Below, piece after piece: positions 1 through 8,767 of a stretch of 8,767 nucleotides of DNA. The notes beneath the pieces are model-generated. The model made no database searches, was not told the DNA's origin, and was given only the letters and a program-made list of their open reading frames with translations. The position numbers were made by a program, and so were the translations under genes. The stretch spans positions 1-8,767 of the forward strand of contig CANQIS010000072.1 of NCBI GenBank assembly GCA_947624115.1. The letters run 5' to 3'. The number at the start of each line of letters is the position of its first letter. Position 1 is the first letter of the stretch. Source of the DNA: an uncultured Bacilli bacterium. GTDB taxonomy: Bacteria; Bacillota_I; Bacilli_A; RF39; UBA660.

Positions 1-192
1 AGTAAATGTGGATATAAAAATGAGAAGATAAAAAATTTAAATATAAGACATTACGAATGTCCGAAATGTCATAATGAGTTAGATAGAGATTATAATGCTA
101 GTGAAAATATCATGTTTGAAGGTTTAAAAAAATATATGAAAGAAGTCAACATATGGACGAACTGCAATTCAAAACAAAGAAACTATACATAA
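1..192 (+). CDS. tnpB: IS200/IS605-family TnpB (OrfB) RNA-guided nuclease, C-terminal 63 aa only (5' part outside window)
   Basis: Frame 1 is open from base 1 to TAA at 190-192. It reads SKCGYKNEKIKNLNIRHYECPKCHNELDRDYNASENIMFEGLKKYMKEVNIW... This gives a KCG-x16-CPKC zinc ribbon followed by DRDYNASENI, the RuvC-III D-R-D-x-N-A-x-x-N-I signature of TnpB/IS605 OrfB. It is not in the ORF track because there is no start codon in the window. Confidence 0.8.
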   Translation, partial: SKCGYKNEKIKNLNIRHYECPKCHNELDRDYNASENIMFEGLKKYMKEVNIWTNCNSKQRNYT

Positions 193-340
193 AGTCAAAT
201 AAAAAAATAATAAAAATTATCAAGTACGGTAGCGACTATCGGATTTTAAATCTGCTTTAGTAGGTAGGTAACGATTCTTTGAAGTAGAAACATTTAAGTG
301 TGAACTTAAATATTCAAAATTTGTTTTGAATTTTGTTCTT
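193..340 (+). mobile_element. Right end (RE) of the IS200/IS605-family element; expected 3' part of the TnpB omega-RNA scaffold, with subterminal hairpin 312-331
   Basis: This non-coding stretch lies directly downstream of the tnpB stop. It has a perfect 8-bp hairpin, ATTCAAAA(312-319)-TTTG-TTTTGAAT(324-331). The sequence is shared with a second copy at 2257-2352. Identity stops abruptly after ...TTGTTCTT (340 vs 2352), which is how I place the element boundary. In this family the omega-RNA scaffold ends at the RE and the guide is the flanking DNA, here 341 onward (TTTGATAAAGTTAAAG). Confidence 0.55.
295..340 (+). repeat. 46-nt direct repeat, copy 1 (IS right-end core)
   Basis: TAAGTGTGAACTTAAATATTCAAAATTTGTTTTGAATTTTGTTCTT matches 2307-2352 at 44 of 46 positions. 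The mismatches are G302/T2314 and C315/T2327. Weaker homology extends upstream to about 229 vs 2257. Confidence 0.9.
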
Positions 341-608
341 TTTGATAAAGTTAAAGCTTTATATAGTAAGACTAAATTGTTAATTTAAATTTATCTGAAC
401 TACAAAAGTCAAGAGTTTTGGTATTTCATTAACTAATGAAATTATAAAACGCATAATGGTAAAATTGATTATTTATCGATTAAAAATACAAGTTCGACTG
501 TTTAAATTATATTAGATAGTACTATGTAAAGTACTGTACAAATGAATTAAAAAAATTGATTTTATAAAATAAATATGTTAATCTATTATATAGAAAGTAG
601 GTAATTAT

Positions 609-1979
609 ATGAATGTCAAAAAATTCAGTAAAATATTTTGTAATTCGTTAGCGTTATTCTTGCTATTAAATGTTAATATAACTAATGCTTTAGAAAAAAA
701 TATTCAATTAGGAGACGCAAATTCAGATGGTGTTATTGATAATAATGATGCTCAATTGGTCCTAAAGTATGCAGCCGACAATAGTATTGAAATCAATAAA
801 GAGGCTGCTGATGTAAATCAAGATGGAAAAATTGATAGTTTTGATGCATCACTTATCTTAAGATATGTATCAGGTTATGATATTGAATTTGGAAACGTAT
901 CATCAGAATCTGAATGTTTACTAGGTGATGTAAATGCCGATAAAAAGGTTAACAATGAAGATGTAGAATTATTAAATAAGTATTTAGCAAGTGAAGAAGT
1001 ATTAATAGATCTGGTTGCAGCTGATATGAATAAAGACGATAAAGTAAATATATTGGATTTATCTATATTAAGAAATTTATTAGCAGATCAATCAAAAAAT
1101 CAGCAGAACATTAAATTAGGAGATGTGAATTCAGACGGTGTTATTGATAATAATGATGCTCAATTGGTCCTAAAGTATGTAGCCGACAATAGTGTTGAAA
1201 TCAATAAAGAAGCTGCTGATGTAAATCAAGATGGAAAAATTGATAGTTTTGATGTTGCACTTATTTTAAGATATGTGTCAGGTTATGATGTTGAATTTGG
1301 AAACGTATCATCAGAATCTGAATGCTTATTAGGTGATGTAAATGCCGATAAAAAGATTAACAATGAAGACGTAGAATTATTAAATAAGTATTTAGCAGGT
1401 GAAGAAGTATTAATAGATCTGGTTGCAGCTGATATGAATAAGGATGGTAAATTAGATATATTAGATTTATCCATGTTAAGACAATTATTAACAAACAATT
1501 TTTTTATAGAAGATCATGATAGTGGAATTAAAATTCAATTAAATGATAATGAAGAAAATAATTTAAATTTAAAAGTAACTACTTTGGAAAAAAATAAAAT
1601 TCCATCTAAAATAGTTGAAATGTCTGCTAAATATATTGCGTATGACATTTCATTAAAAAATCCTAATGGTATAGATGTTCAACCAAATTCTAAAGTGAAA
1701 GTATCAATTCCAATACCAGTAGATTTTGATAAAACTAAGCTATTAGTATATAGAATTGAAGACGATGGGACTTTAACAAAATTTAATGTCATTGTAAATG
1801 GAGAAAATGCTGAATTTGAAGTTGATCATTTTAGTAATTATGTATTAATTGAAACAAATGTTAAGAATCCTCAAACTTTAGATTCTAATAATAACTTATT
1901 TATAATTATATCTATAATTTGTTGTGGCTTTATATTAGTAAAAATTTTACGACTTAATAATGTATTAAAAAGTAAATAA
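609..1979 (+). CDS. Secreted surface protein with four dockerin (type I-like) modules, a beta-rich C-terminal domain and a sortase-type sorting signal
   Basis: N-terminal Sec signal MNVKKFSKIFCNSLALFLLLNVNITNA|LE. There are eight EF-hand-like Ca-binding segments of the dockerin type: GDANSDGVIDNNDAQLVLKY, ADVNQDGKIDSFDASLILRY, GDVNADKKVNNEDVELLNKY, ADMNKDDKVNILDLSILRNL, and the same four again. The C-terminus has NPQTL (1866-1880), a short linker, the hydrophobic LFIIISIICCGFILVKIL and a basic tail RLNNVLKSK, which is the layout of a cell-wall sorting signal. No catalytic domain is recognisable. Confidence 0.85.
   Translation: MNVKKFSKIFCNSLALFLLLNVNITNALEKNIQLGDANSDGVIDNNDAQLVLKYAADNSIEINKEAADVNQDGKIDSFDASLILRYVSGYDIEFGNVSSESECLLGDVNADKKVNNEDVELLNKYLASEEVLIDLVAADMNKDDKVNILDLSILRNLLADQSKNQQNIKLGDVNSDGVIDNNDAQLVLKYVADNSVEINKEAADVNQDGKIDSFDVALILRYVSGYDVEFGNVSSESECLLGDVNADKKINNEDVELLNKYLAGEEVLIDLVAADMNKDGKLDILDLSMLRQLLTNNFFIEDHDSGIKIQLNDNEENNLNLKVTTLEKNKIPSKIVEMSAKYIAYDISLKNPNGIDVQPNSKVKVSIPIPVDFDKTKLLVYRIEDDGTLTKFNVIVNGENAEFEVDHFSNYVLIETNVKNPQTLDSNNNLFIIISIICCGFILVKILRLNNVLKSK
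698..1496 (+). repeat. In-frame tandem duplication, 2 units with a 408-bp (136-aa) period, inside the dockerin gene
   Basis: Unit 1 is about 698-1088 and unit 2 about 1106-1496. For example, GGAGACGCAAATTCAGATGGTGTTATTGATAATAATGATGCTCAATTGGTCCTAAAGTATG at 711 matches GGAGATGTGAATTCAGACGGTGTTATTGATAATAATGATGCTCAATTGGTCCTAAAGTATG at 1119. Identity is roughly 90% at nucleotide level by eye. Each unit encodes two dockerin modules. Confidence 0.9.
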
Positions 1980-2005
1980 TATAACTAAAAAATCCTTTTT
2001 TTTAT

Positions 2006-2045
2006 AAAAGATGAAAAATTTTTTTAAAATTTTTTCATCTTTTTG
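2006..2045 (+). terminator. Putative rho-independent terminator of the dockerin gene
   Basis: AGATGAAAAA (2009-2018) pairs with TTTTTCATCT (2031-2040), 10 bp and extendable by AAA/TTT. It is followed by TTTTG. The stem is AT-rich with only 2 G:C pairs, so it is weak. Confidence 0.5.
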
Positions 2046-2161
2046 TATTAGTAATTATTTTAAAAAATGTTAATACATTCTTGGTGGTGATAGTCTGAAA
2101 AAAATTAAAGTTTTCAAAACTATTTGTAACTTGAACAAAGTGAAAGGAATGAGTGGTTAAC

Positions 2162-2251
2162 ATGGTAATAAATAAGGCATATAAGTTTAGATTATATCCT
2201 AAGAAAAAAAGGAAGAATAATAAATGCAACTATATCAAAAGAATTAGATAA
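2162..2251 (+). pseudogene. tnpB: tnpB N-terminal stub (internally deleted or frameshifted IS200/IS605-family TnpB)
   Basis: ATG at 2162 reads MVINKAYKFRLYPKKKRKNNKCNYIKRIR*. M-x-x-x-KAYKFRLYP is the conserved N-terminus of TnpB/OrfB proteins. Homology decays right after an A-run (2201-2209) and the frame stops at 2249-2251. The +1 frame after the A-run reads ...GRIINATISKELDNK*. The body of the gene is missing and the RE homology begins about 2257. Confidence 0.55.
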
Positions 2252-2256
2252 TAAAT

Positions 2257-2352
2257 AGTAGCATATGAAAAGTATAATAGAAATCGATTTATGAAACAGA
2301 AATATGTAAGTGTTAACTTAAATATTTAAAATTTGTTTTGAATTTTGTTCTT
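2257..2352 (+). mobile_element. Degenerate right end / omega-RNA 3' region of the gutted IS copy
   Basis: Colinear with 229-340. Examples: CGATTTATGAAACAGAAATATGTAAGTG vs CGATTCTTTGAAGTAGAAACATTTAAGTG, followed by the 46-nt near-identical core. The hairpin ATTTAAAA(2324-2331)-TTTG-TTTTGAAT(2336-2343) is retained. The left (LE) boundary of this remnant could not be fixed and lies somewhere between 2046 and 2161. Confidence 0.55.
2307..2352 (+). repeat. 46-nt direct repeat, copy 2 (IS right-end core)
   Basis: TAAGTGTTAACTTAAATATTTAAAATTTGTTTTGAATTTTGTTCTT, 44/46 identical to 295-340. Confidence 0.9.
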
Positions 2353-2417
2353 GCTATATTTAAAATATTTATTGTTTGAAGTTGATTATAGTAAAAAGCA
2401 ATAAAGTTAAAATTGAA

Positions 2418-2447
2418 TTGGCTAGTGTACTGAATTTGTGTTATAAT
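2418..2447 (+). promoter_or_regulatory. Sigma-A type promoter with extended -10, driving retron ncRNA and RT
   Basis: TTGGCT (2418-2423), an 18-nt spacer that includes TG at 2439-2440, then TATAAT (2442-2447). This forms TGTTATAAT, an extended -10. The predicted start at about 2453-2455 coincides with the 5' inverted repeat of the ncRNA. Confidence 0.55.
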
Positions 2448-2452
2448 ATTAT

Positions 2453-2610
2453 TGCAGTAGCGATTGGATTTATTCCTACTTTAACGATTCGTTAAGGGAC
2501 TATAATAATTAGTATGATTAAATAGTAATATTCCAAAGGACAATACTACACGTTGTGTAGGCGCTTCGCTTTAAGTCCATTTCCATATTACTATATCATT
2601 AGTACTGCAG
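2453..2610 (+). ncRNA. Retron msr/msd non-coding RNA (candidate)
   Basis: Terminal inverted repeats a1 TGCAGTA (2453-2459) and a2 TACTGCA (2603-2609), plus a U2452:G2610 wobble. G2460 lies immediately 3' of a1 in the context GTAGCGA and is the candidate branching G. Ec86 has a1-TTA-G-CGA (from memory). An msr hairpin spans 2479-2497, with TTAAC/GTTAA plus 2 further pairs and loop GATTC. A long msd stem is formed by ATAGTAATAT (2522-2531) with ATATTACTAT (2585-2594), continued by TGAT (2515-2518) with ATCA (2595-2598). The apex is locally GC-rich: GGAC/GTCC, CTACAC-GTT-GTGTAG (2546-2560) and GCG-CTT-CGC (2561-2569). The element ends 13 nt before the RT ATG, the canonical retron layout. Confidence 0.7.
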
Positions 2611-2622
2611 GAGGTAGTAATA

Positions 2623-3588
2623 ATGTGGAAATACATTGGAACAAAAGAATGTAATGAATTTTTACTATCTCTTAATCTATTTGATTGTAAGGATAAAAAA
2701 AAGTATATTAAAATATTATATTCTATAACTAATAATTTAGAGAAAAATTATAGTATTTATAAAATTAAAAAGAAGAATGGTAAATATAGAACCATATATG
2801 AACCACATTTACTTTTAAAACATATTCAAAAACAAATTTTAACTAATGTTCTTAATAATAAATCTATATCTAAATATGCTAAGGCATATCATAAAGGTTT
2901 ATCATTAAAAGATAACGCAATTCCACATATTAATAAAGATTTATTATTAAAGTTAGATATTAAAGATTTTTTTGAAAATATATCTTTTATTAATATTTAT
3001 AATAGTTGTTTTTCAATTGAGTATTTTCCTAAATCAGTTGGTATGTTGTTAACATATTTATGTACTTATGATGATCATCTAACTCAAGGTTCTCCAACAT
3101 CAGCATATATTTCAAATTTAGTTATGAAAGAATTTGATGAAGAATTAGGTAATTGGTGTGAAAAAAATAATATATCATATACAAGATATTCTGATGATAT
3201 GACATTTTCAGGTAGTTTTAATCCAAATGATATAATATTAAGAGTTAGAAAAATGTTATATAAATTGGGTTTGGAACTCAATAATGACAAGATACATGTT
3301 ATTAGCAAATCTGCTAGACAAAGCGTTACTGGTGTGACAGTTAATGAGAAATTACAAGTTAATGCAGAGTATCGTCATAGAATAAGACAAGAGGTATATT
3401 ATATTAAAAAGTTTGGGCTAAAATCTCATTTAAATAAATGTAACATTGATATGACAGAAAAACAATATATAAATATGTTGTATGGTAGAATACTTTATGT
3501 TTTACAAATTAATGAAAATGATTTGGAATTTAAAAAATACCAAAAATTTGTTTTAGGATTAAAAAGATGTTGTAATGAAATGAAATAA
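2623..3588 (+). CDS. Retron-type reverse transcriptase (321 aa, apparently intact)
   Basis: SD AGGAGG at 2609-2614, 8 nt before the ATG. Motifs: KKKNGKYRTIYEP, LKHIQKQIL, AKAYHKGLSLKDNAIPH (retron NAxxH), LLKLDIKDFFENI (motif A Asp), LTQGSPTSAYISNL (motif B), YTRYSDDMTFSG (YxDD at 3187-3198), and ARQSVTGVTVN (retron-specific VTG at 3325-3333). The size and C-terminal region (RIRQEVYYIKKFG...) fit stand-alone retron RTs. No fused extra domain is visible. Confidence 0.9.
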   Translation: MWKYIGTKECNEFLLSLNLFDCKDKKKYIKILYSITNNLEKNYSIYKIKKKNGKYRTIYEPHLLLKHIQKQILTNVLNNKSISKYAKAYHKGLSLKDNAIPHINKDLLLKLDIKDFFENISFINIYNSCFSIEYFPKSVGMLLTYLCTYDDHLTQGSPTSAYISNLVMKEFDEELGNWCEKNNISYTRYSDDMTFSGSFNPNDIILRVRKMLYKLGLELNNDKIHVISKSARQSVTGVTVNEKLQVNAEYRHRIRQEVYYIKKFGLKSHLNKCNIDMTEKQYINMLYGRILYVLQINENDLEFKKYQKFVLGLKRCCNEMK

Positions 3589-3764
3589 TTGCATTAACTT
3601 ATTTATCATAAAAATTAAAAATGTTATAATTATTAATTTTTTAACATTACATTTATTTACATAGAAGAAATGAAATAATGACTATGATTTTACAATAATG
3701 TTAATAATTAGTTATAATTAAAATATGTAAGAACTAGTTAAATATATTAAAAAAATTTTTATTT

Positions 3765-3792
3765 TTGACAAATTATTTACATATTGTATACA
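3765..3792 (+). promoter_or_regulatory. Candidate sigma-A promoter of murC
   Basis: TTGACA (3765-3770), 16-nt spacer, TATACA (3787-3792). It lies about 95 nt upstream of the murC GTG start. Confidence 0.45.
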
Positions 3793-3886
3793 TAAAAAAC
3801 ATAGAATTATTACTTGAAAATTGTAAAGAAAATATAATGGATTGCAGTTAAGTTTTAATAGTATAATTATATTGGAGGTGTTAGTT

Positions 3887-5185
3887 GTGAAATATTATTG
3901 TATAGGTATTAAAGGTGCCGGAATGAGTACTTTAGCTCAAATATTATATGATCTTGGCAATGTTGTTATTGGCTATGATGATGTTAGGGAATATAAATTT
4001 ACGGAAGATGGTTTACAAAAGCGTGGTATTAAAATTTATAATGATCAAAGTTGTAATTTAGATAGTGATACAATTGTTACTTATTCGGCTGCTGTTTCAT
4101 TGTTTCATCTTGAAATTCAACGCGCAAAAAAGTTAGGATTAAAAATTAAAAAGTATCATGATATAATTGGGGATATTACAAAAATGTTTACAACTATATC
4201 TGTATGTGGAACACATGGTAAAACAACAACTTCTTCACTTATTGCGCATATTTTAAAAAATACAAAGGGATGTAATTATTTTATTGGTGATGGAAGTGGA
4301 TATGCTGATTTAAAAAATAAGTTATTTGTGGTCGAATCTTGTGAATATAATCGCCATTTTTTAGCTTATCATCCTTCTTATACGGTTATTACTAATATCG
4401 AATTGGAGCATACTGAATGTTATAAAGATATTAATGAAATAGTGAAAACTTTTGAAGAGTTTGCAAATAAATCAATTAATGGTGTTGTAGCTTGTGGTGA
4501 TGATGAGAATATTCGCAAGTTGAGTCTGAATAAAGAAGTTTTTTATTATGGTTTTAATAAGGATAATGATTTATATGCTACTAATATAATGTTTAGTAAT
4601 AGTGGTAGTTGTTTTGATGTATATTATAAAAATAATTTTTATGGACATTTTGAGTTGCCTTTATTTGGAAAGCATATGATTTTAAATACGCTTGCATGTA
4701 TTGCTATATCAATTTTACAAGGTATAGATTATGCAACCATTCATGAGTTATTACATTCATTTAAAAATGCTAAAAGACGTTTTTGTGAGGAAAAATATGG
4801 AAGTAATATTATAATTGATGATTATGCCCACCATCCAACGGAAATTAAAGTTACTTTAGAATCAGCACGTCAGAAATATCCAGATAAAAAATTGATAGCT
4901 ATATTTAAACCTAATACTTATTCTAGAACTAAGGATTTTAAACAAGATTTTGTGAATGCTTTAAATATTGCTGATAAAGCTTATGTTACTCCGATAGATT
5001 GTAATCGGGAAAATCAAAATGATTATCCTGGAATTACTTCAGATATAATCATTAATGATTTACGAGATGGTGAGATTGTAACTGATGATTCTGTGTCTAA
5101 ATTAAAAAAATATAATAATTCAGTTTTATGTTTTATGAGTTGTGCTAGTGTGGCACATTTAATTGAAAATTATAAAAAACTATAA
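3887..5185 (+). CDS. murC: UDP-N-acetylmuramate--L-alanine ligase (MurC)
   Basis: Mur ligase motifs: N-terminal Rossmann-like YYCIGIKGAGMSTLAQIL, P-loop ISVCGTHGKTTTSSLIAHIL, and DDYAHHPTEI near the C-terminal domain. I place the start at GTG 3887 (MKYYCIGIKG...), 6 nt after SD GGAGGTG (3874-3880). The ORF-track TTG at 3842 has no SD and adds a non-conserved extension. Confidence 0.9.
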   Translation: MKYYCIGIKGAGMSTLAQILYDLGNVVIGYDDVREYKFTEDGLQKRGIKIYNDQSCNLDSDTIVTYSAAVSLFHLEIQRAKKLGLKIKKYHDIIGDITKMFTTISVCGTHGKTTTSSLIAHILKNTKGCNYFIGDGSGYADLKNKLFVVESCEYNRHFLAYHPSYTVITNIELEHTECYKDINEIVKTFEEFANKSINGVVACGDDENIRKLSLNKEVFYYGFNKDNDLYATNIMFSNSGSCFDVYYKNNFYGHFELPLFGKHMILNTLACIAISILQGIDYATIHELLHSFKNAKRRFCEEKYGSNIIIDDYAHHPTEIKVTLESARQKYPDKKLIAIFKPNTYSRTKDFKQDFVNALNIADKAYVTPIDCNRENQNDYPGITSDIIINDLRDGEIVTDDSVSKLKKYNNSVLCFMSCASVAHLIENYKKL

Positions 5186-5187
5186 TA

Positions 5188-5231
5188 AAAAAGGGTTGCT
5201 ATGAAATAGATTATTTCATTCAATCCTTTTT
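5188..5231. terminator. Bidirectional rho-independent terminator between convergent murC and tmcAL
   Basis: Outer stem AAAAAGGGTTG (5188-5198) pairs with CAATCCTTTTT (5221-5231), with one G:U. Inner stem ATGAAATA (5201-5208)-GAT-TATTTCAT (5212-5219). An A-run lies 5' and a T-run 3', so it can act in both directions. The 3' arm overlaps the last codons of tmcAL. Confidence 0.55.
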
Positions 5232-6373
5232 ATAATAGGTTTATTTGTATATTCCATATTGATAATTTTATTTTTTTGTTCATCATTATATATGCTTGCG
5301 TATATAGCGTTAACTCTAAATTCTAAATCTAGGTATTGTTTTCCTTTTGAGTAGTTACTAATAATAGGAATATTTATGGATTTTTTTATATTTTTTAAAT
5401 ATTTTGCTCCTAATTCATCAAATCCTAAAATTCTAATATAGATTATGTTTTGATATTGTATAGCTTCTTCTTTAGTAAAGCCACATAATATATGAATTAA
5501 CATACGCTTTATTTTGTTATAGGTATATCTTTTTGTTTTTATTTTGTTAATTAAATCTTCAACATTTATACAATTGTAAATATATTTTTTTATTCGATTT
5601 TCAATTCCTTCATCGACGGTTTGATATTTATCTAAGTTGTTTATTTCGGATATTATTTTGTATTTTATAAAGTTAAAAAAACTTTCGATATCGGATTTAT
5701 CGTTAATATATTTTAGTGATATATCTGGTACAAATGTGGTAATGTCAATATGATTTTTCATGGCTTCTCTAATACTAGTAGCACTAGTAATTTTTTTATT
5801 TAATTTTTTTGAATGGTATTTATTTGTTCTTTTAATAGTAATGGCTTCAATATTACTATTTTGTTTTTTTATTTCTTTAACATAACTTAGACCTAGAAGA
5901 TCATTAGGATCTTTAATCGTTTGTCCACATATATCTTTGAGAGCTTTTGATAATGCGGTAGGATAGTTGATACCTTGTTCTAAATAATTTTTTACAATTA
6001 ATTGATATTCGTCATTATGTATTTGAATATCTGCCATTTTATTTAAAAGTTCTATGTTGTTACATTCGCTACCAAAAACGATTTTTTCAACTTGCAGTTC
6101 TGTTAGTATTTTAATAGCTCCATGAGCAAAGATATCAGCTGATTGGGTAGCAAAATGAAATGGTAATTCAATAACTAGGTTAATGCCATATTTTAATGCG
6201 ATTTTAGTTTTGTTCCATTTATTGATTAGACTAACATCACCACGCTGTAAGAAGTTTCCACTCATTACTAGTATAATTAAATAATTAGGATATAATTTTT
6301 TTATTTTTTGTATATGATATATATGACCATTATGAAATGGATTGTATTCACAAATAATTCCAACTGCTTTCAT
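5216..6373 (-). CDS. tmcAL: tRNA(Met) cytidine acetate ligase (TmcAL; YlbM/UPF0348 nucleotidyltransferase family)
   Basis: The N-terminus MKAVGIICEYNPFHNGHIYHIQKIK...VMSGNFLQRGD...NKWNKTKIALKYGINLVIELPF closely matches the B. subtilis YlbM/TmcAL pattern (EYNPFHNGH, MSG-F-QRG). SD AGGTGA (rc of 6378-6383). It sits next to ylbN-rpmF as in Bacillus. Confidence 0.88.
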   Translation of the reverse strand: MKAVGIICEYNPFHNGHIYHIQKIKKLYPNYLIILVMSGNFLQRGDVSLINKWNKTKIALKYGINLVIELPFHFATQSADIFAHGAIKILTELQVEKIVFGSECNNIELLNKMADIQIHNDEYQLIVKNYLEQGINYPTALSKALKDICGQTIKDPNDLLGLSYVKEIKKQNSNIEAITIKRTNKYHSKKLNKKITSATSIREAMKNHIDITTFVPDISLKYINDKSDIESFFNFIKYKIISEINNLDKYQTVDEGIENRIKKYIYNCINVEDLINKIKTKRYTYNKIKRMLIHILCGFTKEEAIQYQNIIYIRILGFDELGAKYLKNIKKSINIPIISNYSKGKQYLDLEFRVNAIYASIYNDEQKNKIINMEYTNKPIIKRIE

Positions 6374-6390
6374 TTTTTCACCTATTTATA

Positions 6391-6419
6391 ATATTAGCAT
6401 ACTTAAAAAGCTTAATCAA
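6391..6419 (-). promoter_or_regulatory. Candidate promoter of tmcAL
   Basis: On the minus strand: TTGATT (rc of 6414-6419), 17-nt spacer, TAATAT (rc of 6391-6396). Confidence 0.45.
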
Positions 6420-6421
6420 GG

Positions 6422-6450
6422 TTGATTAATTTATAATTTTGGCGTATAAT
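6422..6450 (+). promoter_or_regulatory. Near-consensus sigma-A promoter of the yceD-rpmF operon
   Basis: TTGATT (6422-6427), 17-nt spacer, TATAAT (6445-6450). It lies about 34 nt upstream of the yceD ATG. Confidence 0.65.
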
Positions 6451-6483
6451 ATTTAATATATTATTTTTGTGGGGAGGCAGTTA

Positions 6484-6978
6484 ATGAAGATTGATATAAC
6501 TAAATTAAAAAATTCAATTGAAAAACAAATTGAAATCTCAGAAAAAATAGTTTTTAATGATGATGATATTAAGTCTGCAGATATGTTGTCACTTGAACCG
6601 GTATTAGTTAAAGGAATTATCAAGAAAAATAGTTTTGACAATTATAATGTTATTTTAAATATTACTGGTAAAATGGTATTACCTTGCGCTATTACTTTAA
6701 AACCAGTTGATTATCCATTTAATATTTCTATTGATGAAATTTTTTCTGAAAATGCTGAAGAAATGTCAAAAAAAATTAAAAATTGTGAAAATTCTATTGA
6801 TATTTTACCAATTGTATGGGAAAATATATTAATGGAAATTCCCATGAAAGTTGTTAGTCCAGATGCATCTTATGAGAAATTAGAGGGCGAAGGCTGGAAA
6901 ATTGTAACAGAGGATTGTGAAAGTATTAATCCTGAGTTAGCAAAATTAAAAGATTTGTTAGATAAGAAAGAGGTGTAA
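6484..6978 (+). CDS. yceD: YceD/YlbN family protein (DUF177; large-subunit rRNA accumulation protein)
   Basis: An acidic protein of about 165 aa immediately upstream of rpmF and translationally close to it (stop at 6976-6978, rpmF ATG at 6982). This is the conserved yceD-rpmF arrangement. The start is placed at ATG 6484, 6 nt after SD GGGGAGG (6471-6477). The ORF-track GTG at 6469 overlaps the SD itself. Confidence 0.8.
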   Translation: MKIDITKLKNSIEKQIEISEKIVFNDDDIKSADMLSLEPVLVKGIIKKNSFDNYNVILNITGKMVLPCAITLKPVDYPFNISIDEIFSENAEEMSKKIKNCENSIDILPIVWENILMEIPMKVVSPDASYEKLEGEGWKIVTEDCESINPELAKLKDLLDKKEV

Positions 6979-6981
6979 ATA

Positions 6982-7164
6982 ATGGCTGTACCATTTAGAA
7001 AAGTAAGTAAGACACGTGGAAGAAAACGTCGTACACATTACAAGATTGTAGAAAATGCAACAGTTAAGTGTCCAAAATGTGGTGAGGCAGTAAGACCACA
7101 TAGAGTTTGTCCAAATTGTGGAACATACAAAAATAAAGAAGTAGTAAAAACAACTGAAGAATAG
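6982..7164 (+). CDS. rpmF: 50S ribosomal protein L32 (zinc-ribbon C+ form)
   Basis: [21 protein letters not shown]...[20 protein letters not shown]. This shows the L32 N-terminal signature and a CxxC-x9-CxxC motif. SD AAGAGGTG lies upstream. Confidence 0.95.
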
Positions 7165-7174
7165 TTGTTTTTTT
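7146..7174 (+). terminator. Putative rho-independent terminator of yceD-rpmF
   Basis: AAAAACAACT (7146-7155) pairs with AGTTGTTTTT (7163-7172), with loop GAAGAAT, and is followed by further T residues. It overlaps the rpmF stop codon. The stem is AT-rich. Confidence 0.45.
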
Positions 7175-7270
7175 ATATATTAGGAATTTTCTTCTAAAAA
7201 ATGTTAAACGCTATCTAAAATTTCTTTACTTTTTTTTTATTTGATTGTATACTTAAAATAGGGTGATGAT

Positions 7271-7663
7271 ATGAAAAAAAATGGTTTTACATTAGCAGAA
7301 TTATTAGGAGTAATTGTTATTTTAGCAGCAATAGCATTGGTGGCTTTTCCACCAATAATTAATCAATTACGTAAATCGCGTTCTGAGTTGGATTCAGCTT
7401 TGAATAATATAATACAGACTGCTACTGATTTGTATTTGGAAGAACGAAATTTGCCTAAAACAGGAGAGTATTGCATTAATGTTAATGTTTTAATAAAAGA
7501 TGGTAAATTGGTTTCACCTGTTTCTGATTCTCATGGTAATGTAGTTGATAATTATACTTTTTATATTAATTATGAAAAAGGTGAACAAGAATTAGAGGCT
7601 GATACTGATAACCTTTGTACAGTTAAACATCTTGTACCTAAAAAGAATAATATAATGAATTAG
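7271..7663 (+). CDS. Prepilin-type N-terminal cleavage/methylation domain protein (ComGC/type IV pseudopilin-like), orphan
   Basis: MKKNG|FTLAELLGVIVILAAIALVAFPPII shows the class III signal peptide: a short basic leader, G-F-T-L-x-E with Glu at +5, and a hydrophobic helix. The protein is 130 aa with two Cys residues (YCINV, NLCTV). No other pilus or competence genes are in the window. Confidence 0.8.
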   Translation: MKKNGFTLAELLGVIVILAAIALVAFPPIINQLRKSRSELDSALNNIIQTATDLYLEERNLPKTGEYCINVNVLIKDGKLVSPVSDSHGNVVDNYTFYINYEKGEQELEADTDNLCTVKHLVPKKNNIMN

Positions 7664-8767
7664 TTATTTTTCTTTGGATATATTTAATACGAGTCCAATC
7701 ATAATCATAAATAGAATTAGGCTTGAACCACCATAACTTATGAATGGGAGGGTAATTCCTGTAATTGGCATAATACCAAAAGTCATACCAATATTTTGAA
7801 ATTGTTGAAATATTAGCATGCCAACTATACCAGCAATAAAATATTTGTTGGTTTTTTGTTTTGTTTTTTTTGCTATAAAAATTAATTTTATATCGAATAG
7901 AATAATTAGGAAAATTAGTATAATTGAGCCAATAAATCCAAAACTACTGGCATATACGGCGAAAATAAAATCGGTTTGGGCTTCTGGAAAGTAAAGTGGA
8001 ACTTTTTTAATGCCTTTACCAAATATTCCACCACTACCGATGGAAACTAGACTTTTTTCTAGTTGGTAACCGTCTTTATTTGACCAATCAAGTAAACGGT
8101 TAATACGTAGGAAGAAATTGTCTCCTAGTATTTTTTGAAATAGGTTTAGATTTAAAAAGTATAATCCAATAATTGTTAGTATAATGCTGATAATTATTAA
8201 TAATGCTAGGATAAACCATCTTATTCTAATTCCACCAATTAGTAACATAATCAAGGCAATTAGAATATAGATAAGAACATTTCCTGTATCTGGTTCTAAA
8301 AAAGTAAAGATACTTGGTAGTAGAATAATTAGGAATATTTTAAATAAAAATTTAAATTCTTCTAAATTAGATGTTAGTTGTTTTTTATTGAAGTTGTCAA
8401 TTTGTTTAGCAAGGAGAATAATTAAGATTATTTTCATTAATTCACTTGGTTGAAATGTTCCTAAGCCATAAATTTGAAACCAACATTTAGCTCCATTGAT
8501 AGGTTTTCCAATGAATAGTAGTAATAATAGTAAAAAATTGCCAATAGTATATATAATCCAAATATGTTCATAAATCCAATTAATATTTATTTTTATAATA
8601 CAAGTTATAGTAATAAATCCAAGAATATACCATAGTGTTTGTTTTATATATATTTTTTGCATATATTCTGGTAGAATATTTTGAGCACTAAAAATGGTTA
8701 TAATGCTGATAATTGATAATATTATCAATAAAGTTAATAATTGTTTATCACATTTGTTTTTAACCAT
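7664..8767 (-). CDS. SEDS-family peptidoglycan glycosyltransferase (RodA/FtsW/SpoVE family)
   Basis: A polytopic membrane protein with FQPSELMKI and the C-terminal GIMPITGITLPFISYGGSSLI motif typical of FtsW/RodA. The ATG sits exactly at the window edge (8765-8767), so the true start could be further upstream. The 367-aa length fits the family. Confidence 0.88.
   Translation of the reverse strand: MVKNKCDKQLLTLLIILSIISIITIFSAQNILPEYMQKIYIKQTLWYILGFITITCIIKININWIYEHIWIIYTIGNFLLLLLLFIGKPINGAKCWFQIYGLGTFQPSELMKIILIILLAKQIDNFNKKQLTSNLEEFKFLFKIFLIILLPSIFTFLEPDTGNVLIYILIALIMLLIGGIRIRWFILALLIIISIILTIIGLYFLNLNLFQKILGDNFFLRINRLLDWSNKDGYQLEKSLVSIGSGGIFGKGIKKVPLYFPEAQTDFIFAVYASSFGFIGSIILIFLIILFDIKLIFIAKKTKQKTNKYFIAGIVGMLIFQQFQNIGMTFGIMPITGITLPFISYGGSSLILFMIMIGLVLNISKEK

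Follow-up and report, generated by a model that had tools for sequence, protein, structure and literature searches.

An 8,767-nucleotide (8.8 kb) piece of the genome of an uncultured Bacilli bacterium (GenBank contig CANQIS010000072.1, positions 1-8,767; hereafter the window, meaning the whole stretch of DNA that was analyzed) carries a genuine, intact retron that has no effector gene. The element consists of a promoter, a structured noncoding RNA (ncRNA) of the msr-msd type, and a gene for a reverse transcriptase (RT). In our view it is likely to be a complete and probably active retron, a minimal one of the clade-2 Ec107-like (Retron-Eco5-like) kind, a lineage in which the bare cassette would be the normal unit under selection rather than a leftover. 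The locus is largely ordinary: it is an additional member of a known, recently surveyed lineage, and it fits the description of that lineage in every respect testable here.

The relatives of the cassette carry this reading. A pattern scan over one genome per GTDB species returned 80 loci whose RTs are 57-87% identical to the window RT. In 76 of the 80 species, the cassette is bare, has the same sharp 5′ boundary, and stands in unrelated contexts that are free of insertion sequences (ISs). The RT is under purifying selection, with dN/dS values of 0.13-0.22 relative to the window, and its open reading frame (ORF) is intact in 81 of 82 species-level relatives (308-347 amino acids). An earlier sequence-only reading of this DNA had listed, among its explanations, the loss of an effector in an adjacent IS rearrangement. 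Since the bare cassette is widespread, its RT intact and selected, and its RNA covarying, such a local IS-mediated loss is unsupported; nor does the window hold any remnant of the ATPase gene that precedes the cassette in a few relatives (described below).

Reverse transcriptase and noncoding RNA

The protein is a retron RT with no additional domain. Its gene (2623-3588, + strand) encodes 321 amino acids, is free of frameshifts, and contains the hallmarks recognized in the sequence-only reading: NAxxH (DNAIPH; amino acids 98-102), LDIKDFF (111-117), YSDD (189-192), and SVTG (VTG at 235-237). Among the relatives, the catalytic box is YSDD in 81 of 82 and YCDD in the remaining one. RVT_1 is the only Pfam domain detected (7e-20), in agreement with the earlier statement that the protein has no domain to spare. 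We also considered a hidden ORF overlapping the RT gene and rejected it, as alternative-frame stop-free stretches of at least 50 codons vary in frame and position among the loci.

Typing of the RT points to the Ec107-like group. The best PADLOC match is RT_Ec107-like (416.5 bits, 1.6e-125, model positions 2-304 of 307), followed by RT_III-A models from 343.8 bits down to 226. The best 25 RT matches are all retron RT models, which identifies the protein as a retron RT and not that of a group II intron, a diversity-generating retroelement (DGR), an Abi system, or the UG group. All relatives in the PDB are retron RTs as well (E of ~1e-31 to 1e-25), Ec86 being the closest (2.5e-31) along with Ec83 and Ec78. 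The NCBIfam retron models St85, TIR, and Ec67 score 174-209 bits, with Drt2 at 56 and group II RT at 46. These retron scores all fall under their curated cut-offs (209 versus 235 for the St85 family), so NCBI naming would leave the RT untyped. By its best PADLOC profile, one that takes its name from Ec107, the RT types as an Ec107-like member of clade 2. The sequence-only reading had allowed for an undescribed retron class, but the lineage to which the RT types has been published (PMC7736814; 10.64898/2026.05.14.725207). Its premise that a retron without an effector is unusual also fails for the Ec107-like lineage, in which the stand-alone form is already on record.

The ncRNA has its own promoter, as had been proposed. 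This sigma-A type promoter (2418-2447, + strand) combines a -35-like TTGGCT (2418-2423), an 18-nt spacer, and an extended -10, TGTGT-TATAAT (2437-2447). It scores 10 of 12 matches with the TG present, and TGnTATAAT is the consensus across the 80 homologous loci. Conservation extends to the -16/-10 element but not to the -35: nucleotide homology to the relatives begins at 2433-2439. Transcription is predicted to start at about 2453-2455, at the first bases of the repeat a1.

We show that the RNA structure is conserved by compensatory change. The ncRNA (2453-2609, + strand; 157 nt) is bounded by the inverted repeats a1 and a2, and its minimum free energy of -42.6 kcal/mol (z = -2.99) was equaled by none of 200 shuffles. 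When the corresponding stretch of 80 homologous, non-identical loci is aligned, 93.8% of cells are paired, versus 29-45% when the partners are slid by one to three columns. Both-side changes occur in 27 of 43 pairs, spread over seven helices, and none of 500 shuffles attained the observed values. A scan of the whole window against Rfam (E <= 1) gave zero matches, so curated msr families give no help here.

The individual helices follow a retron plan. The 5′ repeat a1 (TGCAGTA, 2453-2459, + strand) pairs with its 3′ partner a2 (TACTGCA, 2603-2609, + strand) through seven pairs, six of them with both-side changes and 98% of cells paired; TGCAGTA/TACTGCA in one locus corresponds, for example, to AGCAATA/TATTGCT in another. 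Directly 3′ of a1, the 80-locus alignment contains a conserved UAG(C/U)G, from which G2460 (+ strand) is, by analogy with characterized retrons, the predicted branching guanosine that would supply the 2′-OH primer. Two msr stem-loops follow (2466-2468/2474-2476 and 2479-2486/2490-2497, + strand), presumably as RT recognition elements; these helices 2 and 3 are 95% and 99% paired, with double changes in 3 of 3 and 5 of 8 pairs. The msd, the template for the multicopy single-stranded DNA (msDNA), spans 2514-2602 (+ strand). It folds into a long hairpin with imperfections (2514-2531/2585-2599 and 2538-2541/2575-2578) and has a further hairpin at the tip (2546-2560). Its helices 4-7 are 77-98% paired, each with compensatory changes, and the predicted msDNA length is ~85-95 nt. 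The ribosome-binding site of the RT gene, GGAGG (2610-2614, + strand), stands directly after a2 and 8 nt ahead of the ATG, and is nearly invariant across the 80 loci. A terminator-like hairpin past the RT gene (3620-3648) was dropped as a candidate, with z = 0.16 against shuffles in the window. One relative, L011, carries a 9-bp AT hairpin after its RT.

Relatives of the cassette and an ATPase-linked minority

The cassette is a compact unit of gut bacteria. All 80 loci come from uncultured gut metagenome-assembled genomes (MAGs) labeled Bacilli, Erysipelotrichaceae, Tenericutes, Mollicutes, or Clostridium sp. CAG:302, and their hosts include rabbits, ruminants, mice, and Hadza and other humans. 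Homology to every relative starts at 2433-2439, just 5′ of the extended -10 TG, and ends at ~3540-3575 (at 3641 for the closest relative). These limits define a shared unit of promoter core, ncRNA, and RT of ~1.14 kb. In an internal neighbor-joining tree of the relatives' RTs, the window groups with two bare loci, L021 and L023.

Flanking genes are almost never shared among the loci, and the context of the cassette differs in nearly every species. We searched the neighborhoods of the 80 loci by BLAST clustering at two stringencies, with Pfam searches on recurrent clusters. Apart from the ATPase in four species, no conserved neighbor gene was found across the 80 species loci. Recurrent neighbors appeared only within close synteny groups under relaxed thresholds, and all were housekeeping genes: a heavy-metal P-type ATPase, LexA, 3-hydroxyacyl-CoA dehydrogenase, a nucleotidyltransferase, an epimerase, NUDIX, GNAT, NusB, and SecG. 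A DUF1653-like small protein (cluster c2) lies near the cassette in eight loci, at variable distance and on either strand. The lack of a branch-wide associated protein cluster, on record for clade-2 Ec107-like retrons, extends over the 80 species-level loci. The phage and plasmid collections IMG/VR, INPHARED, and PLSDB contain no close copies of the cassette, the best match being 44% identical.

The cassette often starts 0-60 nt past an upstream stop codon and is co-oriented with its neighbors in 57 of 73 cases (78%). We considered co-orientation and tight abutment as a sign of targeted insertion and rejected it: strand bias predicts the 78%, and the 5′ edge coincides with the -16/-10 element. 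In three related species (L069:5092-5706, L071, and L073), lexA ends ~20-30 nt ahead of the retron -10 box, an adjacency that could place the cassette under SOS-linked read-through transcription.

Loci that share the downstream genes of the window lack the retron. The order murC-nucleotidyltransferase-yceD is kept in four loci (MurC 72-74% identical), all without a retron upstream of murC. In the two of these that were inspected, the upstream genes differ, with an ABC transporter in one and an unidentified 282-aa ORF in the other; the junction is therefore variable, and neither a clean empty site nor a deletion scar can be defined. The sequence-only reading had proposed comparing the murC-upstream regions of relatives for presence, absence, or loss. 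The comparison thus yielded four syntenic loci without the retron.

A few copies look damaged or irregular. In L028 (7826-7850), an A replaces the branching G that its sister L026 retains, and L028 looks damaged; so does L086 (4597-5320), whose RT is truncated at 240 amino acids. L041 contains a partial duplication of the retron 5′ region (2808-4180), to which window positions 2435-2726 and 2571-3614 both align. Its msd is interrupted by a run of N. The duplication may be an assembly artifact or, alternatively, msr/msd copied in tandem.

A minority of the relatives have an ATPase gene ahead of the cassette. A 288-aa P-loop ABC-type ATPase stands directly upstream in 4 of the 80 species (L027, L034, L040, and L043), as it does in the RT variants that have most often been sampled from the human gut by metagenomics (P0020, P0032, and P0015, for each of which the contig collection has 135-248 indexed blocks). 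The ATPase stop codon precedes the -10 box by 5-6 nt, and a fixed spacing of 208-215 nt separates it from the RT ATG. We found the arrangement in at least five distinct genomic contexts; ATPase coordinates are L008:8926-9792, L013:6001-6864, L181:3501-4367, and L193:1926-2792. In the human-gut copies (L008:8926-14529; L193-L200), the pair occupies one end of an element that encodes a large serine recombinase, TnpV, and a relaxase, and that is integrated at differing chromosomal sites. We take this element to be Tn4451-like. In L013-L017, L040, L043, and L181, the pair occurs without it. Two tRNA-related observations were made among these and other relatives: L011 has a tRNA gene on the minus strand downstream of the retron (11251-11330), and a short motif upstream of the ATPase in L008 (8720-8760; TTCGAACAGATTC...TGGAGC) resembles that gene. 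The L008 motif may be an attachment-site remnant of an integrated element.

The ATPase belongs to a large family with several partners. Its Pfam matches are AAA_15, AAA_21, and SMC_N, and it weakly matches the PtuA, AriA, MAD3, AbiLi, and retron ATPase-Toprim (I-B) profiles (~30-56 bits) as well as the ATPase chain of a solved ATPase-RT complex (PDB 9n69). Given these weak scores, we regard it as an ABC-type, defense-like ATPase outside any named PADLOC v2 family. It has at least 8000 close homologs. Among ATPases that are 74-81% identical and have no retron, some are followed by a DUF5680 protein (1-nt gap, L018:6001-7732) and others by a DUF2207_C protein (13-nt gap, L183:3501-5430); neither partner protein has a PADLOC match. 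The ATPase is thus a modular first gene, after which an Ec107-like retron, a DUF5680 protein, or a DUF2207_C protein can stand second, and it may represent an undescribed defense-type module.

Bare and ATPase-linked cassettes are close kin. They are 76-81% identical in DNA, and their RNA architecture is alike. In the neighbor-joining tree, the ATPase-linked RTs form two small clades nested among the bare ones, with the window's subclade outside both. A tblastn search with the ATPase found neither a match nor a remnant in the window or in L001, a 14.4-kb contig that includes an identical copy of the locus, and no ATPase lies within +/-8 kb of the 76 bare loci.

Mechanism and competing explanations

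We propose that the cassette works by making msDNA. Transcription would run from ~2453 under the extended -10 promoter, as its consensus and conservation suggest. The 5′ 157 nt then fold, as the covariation shows, so that a1 pairs with a2, exposing the two msr stem-loops and the long msd hairpin. The RT, translated from the same transcript, would bind the msr and prime from the 2′-OH of G2460, and by homology to Ec86 and Ec107 it would copy the msd from ~2602 back to ~2514 into a branched msDNA of ~85-95 nt. The resulting RT-msDNA complex would be the functional product, with no effector in cis, and might act either with a protein encoded elsewhere or alone as a nucleic-acid or protein bait. 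The best candidate for a partner would be the small PtuA/AbiEii-like ABC ATPase that, in a minority of relatives, immediately precedes near-identical cassettes. We weigh a partner in trans and effector-independent action about equally.

Several points weigh against our preferred interpretation of a complete, selected minimal retron. No protein partner was found for this locus, and L001 is without an ATPase homolog by tblastn. Genomes with orphan retrons mostly lack homologs of known retron-associated proteins (Mestre et al., PMC7736814), which makes a simple trans effector less plausible. Linkage to the ATPase occurs in 5% of species only; it could be a secondary acquisition and thus uninformative on the bare cassettes. 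Finally, the Ec107-like assignment comes from a profile that takes its name from Ec107.

Decay is, in our view, very improbable. It would make the locus the remnant of a former ATPase-retron or other tripartite system whose effector was deleted by the IS605 rearrangement upstream. IS605-family debris does lie 85 nt from the cassette (TnpB remnant 2153-2251, right-end repeat 2285-2352), and relatives with ~80% DNA identity have the ATPase exactly at the position where the debris region begins. Yet the ATPase has left no tblastn match in the window or L001, both ATPase-linked RT clades exclude the window's subclade, and the cassette is equally bare, with the same 5′ boundary, in the IS-free contexts of 76 of 80 species. 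The purifying selection on the RT and the structural selection on the ncRNA also speak against decay. An explanation in which the 1.14-kb cassette is a selfish element, propagating itself between intergenic sites, appears improbable, though less so. Selfish spread would account for the unrelated flanks, and it draws on the change of context in nearly every species, the starts within 0-60 nt of an upstream stop codon, the murC-syntenic relatives without the cassette, and the position of Ec107 itself, which took the place of a 34-bp intergenic palindrome and has no mobile element in its vicinity (PMC6868368). But we saw no integrase, terminal repeats, or target duplications at these loci, and the conserved 5′ edge coincides with the -16/-10 promoter element, so that selection alone explains the sharp boundary. 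An RNA-mediated copy would be without that promoter, the 78% co-orientation is predicted by Firmicutes strand bias, and IMG/VR, INPHARED, and PLSDB hold no close copies. That the RT is not from a retron at all, but from a group II intron, a DGR, an Abi system, or a UG/DRT system, can practically be dismissed. Its secondary matches to Drt2 (56 bits) and group II RT (46 bits) are weak next to 25 best PADLOC matches that are all retron models; the retron-specific motifs NAxxH and VTG are present, as is a covarying msr/msd with a1/a2 and the branching G. No intron RNA, maturase/En domain, or DGR template/variable repeat was found.

The remaining explanations concern what the cassette does. It is possible, though we would not expect it, that the cassette is the sensor half of a split defense system whose effector lies elsewhere in the genome, for example a member of the small ABC-ATPase family. 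ATPase-linked sisters show that the module can couple to a defense-type ATPase, which makes this family the obvious trans candidate. The ATPase-retron pair is maintained in several contexts and travels as cargo of the Tn4451-like mobilizable element, as is typical of defense modules; the family is very large (>=8000 close homologs) and modular as to its partner gene, and the linked and bare cassettes share 76-81% DNA identity and their RNA architecture. Weighing against such a split are the 76 bare loci without an ATPase inside +/-8 kb and the orphan-retron genomes that mostly have no known retron partners (PMC7736814). We give equally tentative standing to RT-msDNA that is active by itself, without a toxin, for instance as a decoy for a nucleic-acid-binding protein of a phage or the host, or as a regulator that responds to stress. 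The bare cassette is selected in ~76 species among housekeeping genes and not in defense islands, and Ec107 is starvation-induced and not associated with a prophage (PMC6868368; PMC7736814). No retron is known to act in this way, and the ATPase-linked sister cassettes suggest that the module can couple to an effector.

The same tentative weight attaches to a reading of the linked forms themselves. The ATPase-linked cassettes may constitute an undescribed retron subtype, Ec107-like plus a 288-aa PtuA/AbiEii-like ABC ATPase, with the bare ones as plug-in msDNA sensors whose ATPase is elsewhere or that have no effector. Within this subtype, the retron would fill the second-gene slot otherwise held by DUF5680 or DUF2207_C proteins.

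Genomic surroundings and known systems

The flanks of the retron contain no partner gene. The sequence-only reading had said as much, with the minus strand only spot-checked; an ORF listing on both sides and both strands now bears it out. Upstream, positions 1980-2412 contain only a 32-codon TnpB N-terminal remnant and a 64-codon low-complexity ORF on the minus strand, and the latter has no family match. Downstream, the 298-nt spacer that separates the RT stop from the start of murC (3589-3886) is gene-free and includes the murC promoter (TTTACA-18-TATAAT, 3689-3718). No ORF of at least 20 amino acids occurs on either strand at 3589-3764. The earlier statement that no downstream ORF exceeds seven codons is correct for ATG starts; with other starts it fails. 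The only ORF of at least 20 amino acids past 3764 is a 28-codon TTG ORF (3765-3851), which begins within the murC promoter TTGACA. The spacer length, also given earlier as 298 nt, depends on the start of murC. The probable start is GTG 3887, as called in the identical contig L001, behind a GGAGGTG site, and it yields that length; a mechanical ORF call instead puts the start at TTG 3842. With neither an effector gene nor a fused domain, and with a dockerin protein and MurC as neighbors, the locus differs from the tripartite form by which retron defense systems are defined.

The window is AT-rich, with a GC content of 0.16-0.31 in 400-nt intervals. It opens with the 3′ end of a tnpB gene (1-192), recognized by its Cas12f1-like TNB domain in Pfam, and continues with a gene for a 456-aa protein with four dockerin modules (609-1979). 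Next after the retron and murC is a minus-strand gene for a HIGH-family nucleotidyltransferase; then come yceD, rpmF (ribosomal protein L32), a pilin-like gene, and, last in the gene order, an ftsW/rodA-type gene. Six metagenome contigs carry identical copies of the RT locus in an unchanged gene order; L001, the longest, adds only housekeeping genes further downstream.

The IS605 debris upstream, noted in the sequence-only reading, was found again as a TnpB remnant and a right-end repeat copy. A 69-bp repeat follows the tnpB C-terminus (272-340) and recurs at 88% identity upstream of the retron (2285-2352), where it is a copy of the IS605-family right-end repeat. The 32-codon TnpB N-terminal remnant (MVINKAYKFRLYP...; 2153-2251) precedes this second copy. 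Together, the tnpB pieces and repeats resemble a copy of an IS605-family element, placed between the dockerin gene and the retron, that has lost its interior; the debris is unrelated to the architecture of the retron. The dockerin protein gene contains an internal 387-bp duplication (699-1085 versus 1107-1493, 92% identity), and its product has a hydrophobic C-terminal segment. A surface protein with four dockerins is unexpected for a small, AT-rich Bacilli or Mollicutes-like gut genome. A second pilin-like gene lies past the right edge of the window (L001:9194-9583). It shares with the first (7271-7663) a 65-nt 5′ segment that is 83% identical, and both have N-terminal methylation motifs.

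Orphan retrons have been without explanation since Ec107, and both the 2020 classification and the 2026 SPIRE survey drew attention to them again. No new category comes from the locus itself; of the by-products of its analysis, the ATPase-retron variant and the modular ATPase family are of most use. They provide a natural contrast between a bare, selected cassette in dozens of gut Bacilli species and close relatives joined to an ATPase on a mobilizable element, a contrast that could reveal whether the bare form requires a partner. If true, the ATPase subtype would offer the first handle on the role of orphan (Ec107-type) retrons. The minimal 1.14-kb unit, with its short predicted msDNA, may also interest builders of retron editing tools for AT-rich Firmicutes.

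Other retron types resemble the locus in part. Type III-A, with PRTase-like and winged-helix effectors, provides the second-best RT profiles (344-226 bits) and shares a node with the Ec107-like branch in the phylogeny of Mestre et al. (PMC7736814), but a gene for either effector is found in neither the window nor the 14.4-kb contig and does not recur near the 80 relatives. The stand-alone clade-11 retrons of Actinobacteria (Mestre et al. 2020) are the other published msr-msd-RT cassettes without an associated protein cluster; they differ in RT clade and host phylum and are absent from the top PADLOC matches of the window RT. Types I-A (Ec78/Ec83: RT, PtuA, and the HNH protein PtuB) and I-B (ATPase-Toprim) are comparable to the ATPase-linked relatives only, which likewise have an ABC-type ATPase beside msr-msd-RT. 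The ATPase of these relatives, however, is 288 amino acids long, matches at ~30-56 bits, far under family level, and is accompanied by neither HNH nor Toprim; the RT is of clade 2 and not of clades 1 or 3, and the window itself has no ATPase.

The closest likeness is to the Ec107-like branch. Ec107 (Retron-Eco5), which was reportedly described in 1992, is the classic example of a minimal retron. The YCDD box of its RT is unusual, and the retron occupies the place of a 34-bp intergenic palindrome (PMC6868368). Stand-alone msr-msd-RT cassettes were reported in the clade-2 Ec107 branch by Mestre et al. in 2020, who asked whether such retrons have unknown effectors in trans or a changed function (PMC7736814). 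In the 2026 SPIRE preprint, clade2_Ec107like ranks second in abundance among retron groups, with 192 members of which 93% are Bacillota and 91% host-associated, and its recurrent accessory architecture is scored "absent" (10.64898/2026.05.14.725207). The window agrees with this branch in its best RT profile, an RT of ~320 amino acids with no fused domain, a catalytic box other than YADD (YSDD here, YCDD in Ec107), and a minimal intergenic cassette of ~1.1-1.3 kb with no recurrent accessory gene. Host-associated Bacillota dominate the branch, as they do our 80 gut Bacilli MAG loci. The window element differs from Ec107 in its host, an AT-rich (~25% GC) uncultured gut Bacilli bacterium rather than E. 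coli, and in a predicted msDNA of ~85-95 instead of 107 nt. A subset of the window's own sublineage departs further, with an upstream ABC ATPase that is unreported for the branch.

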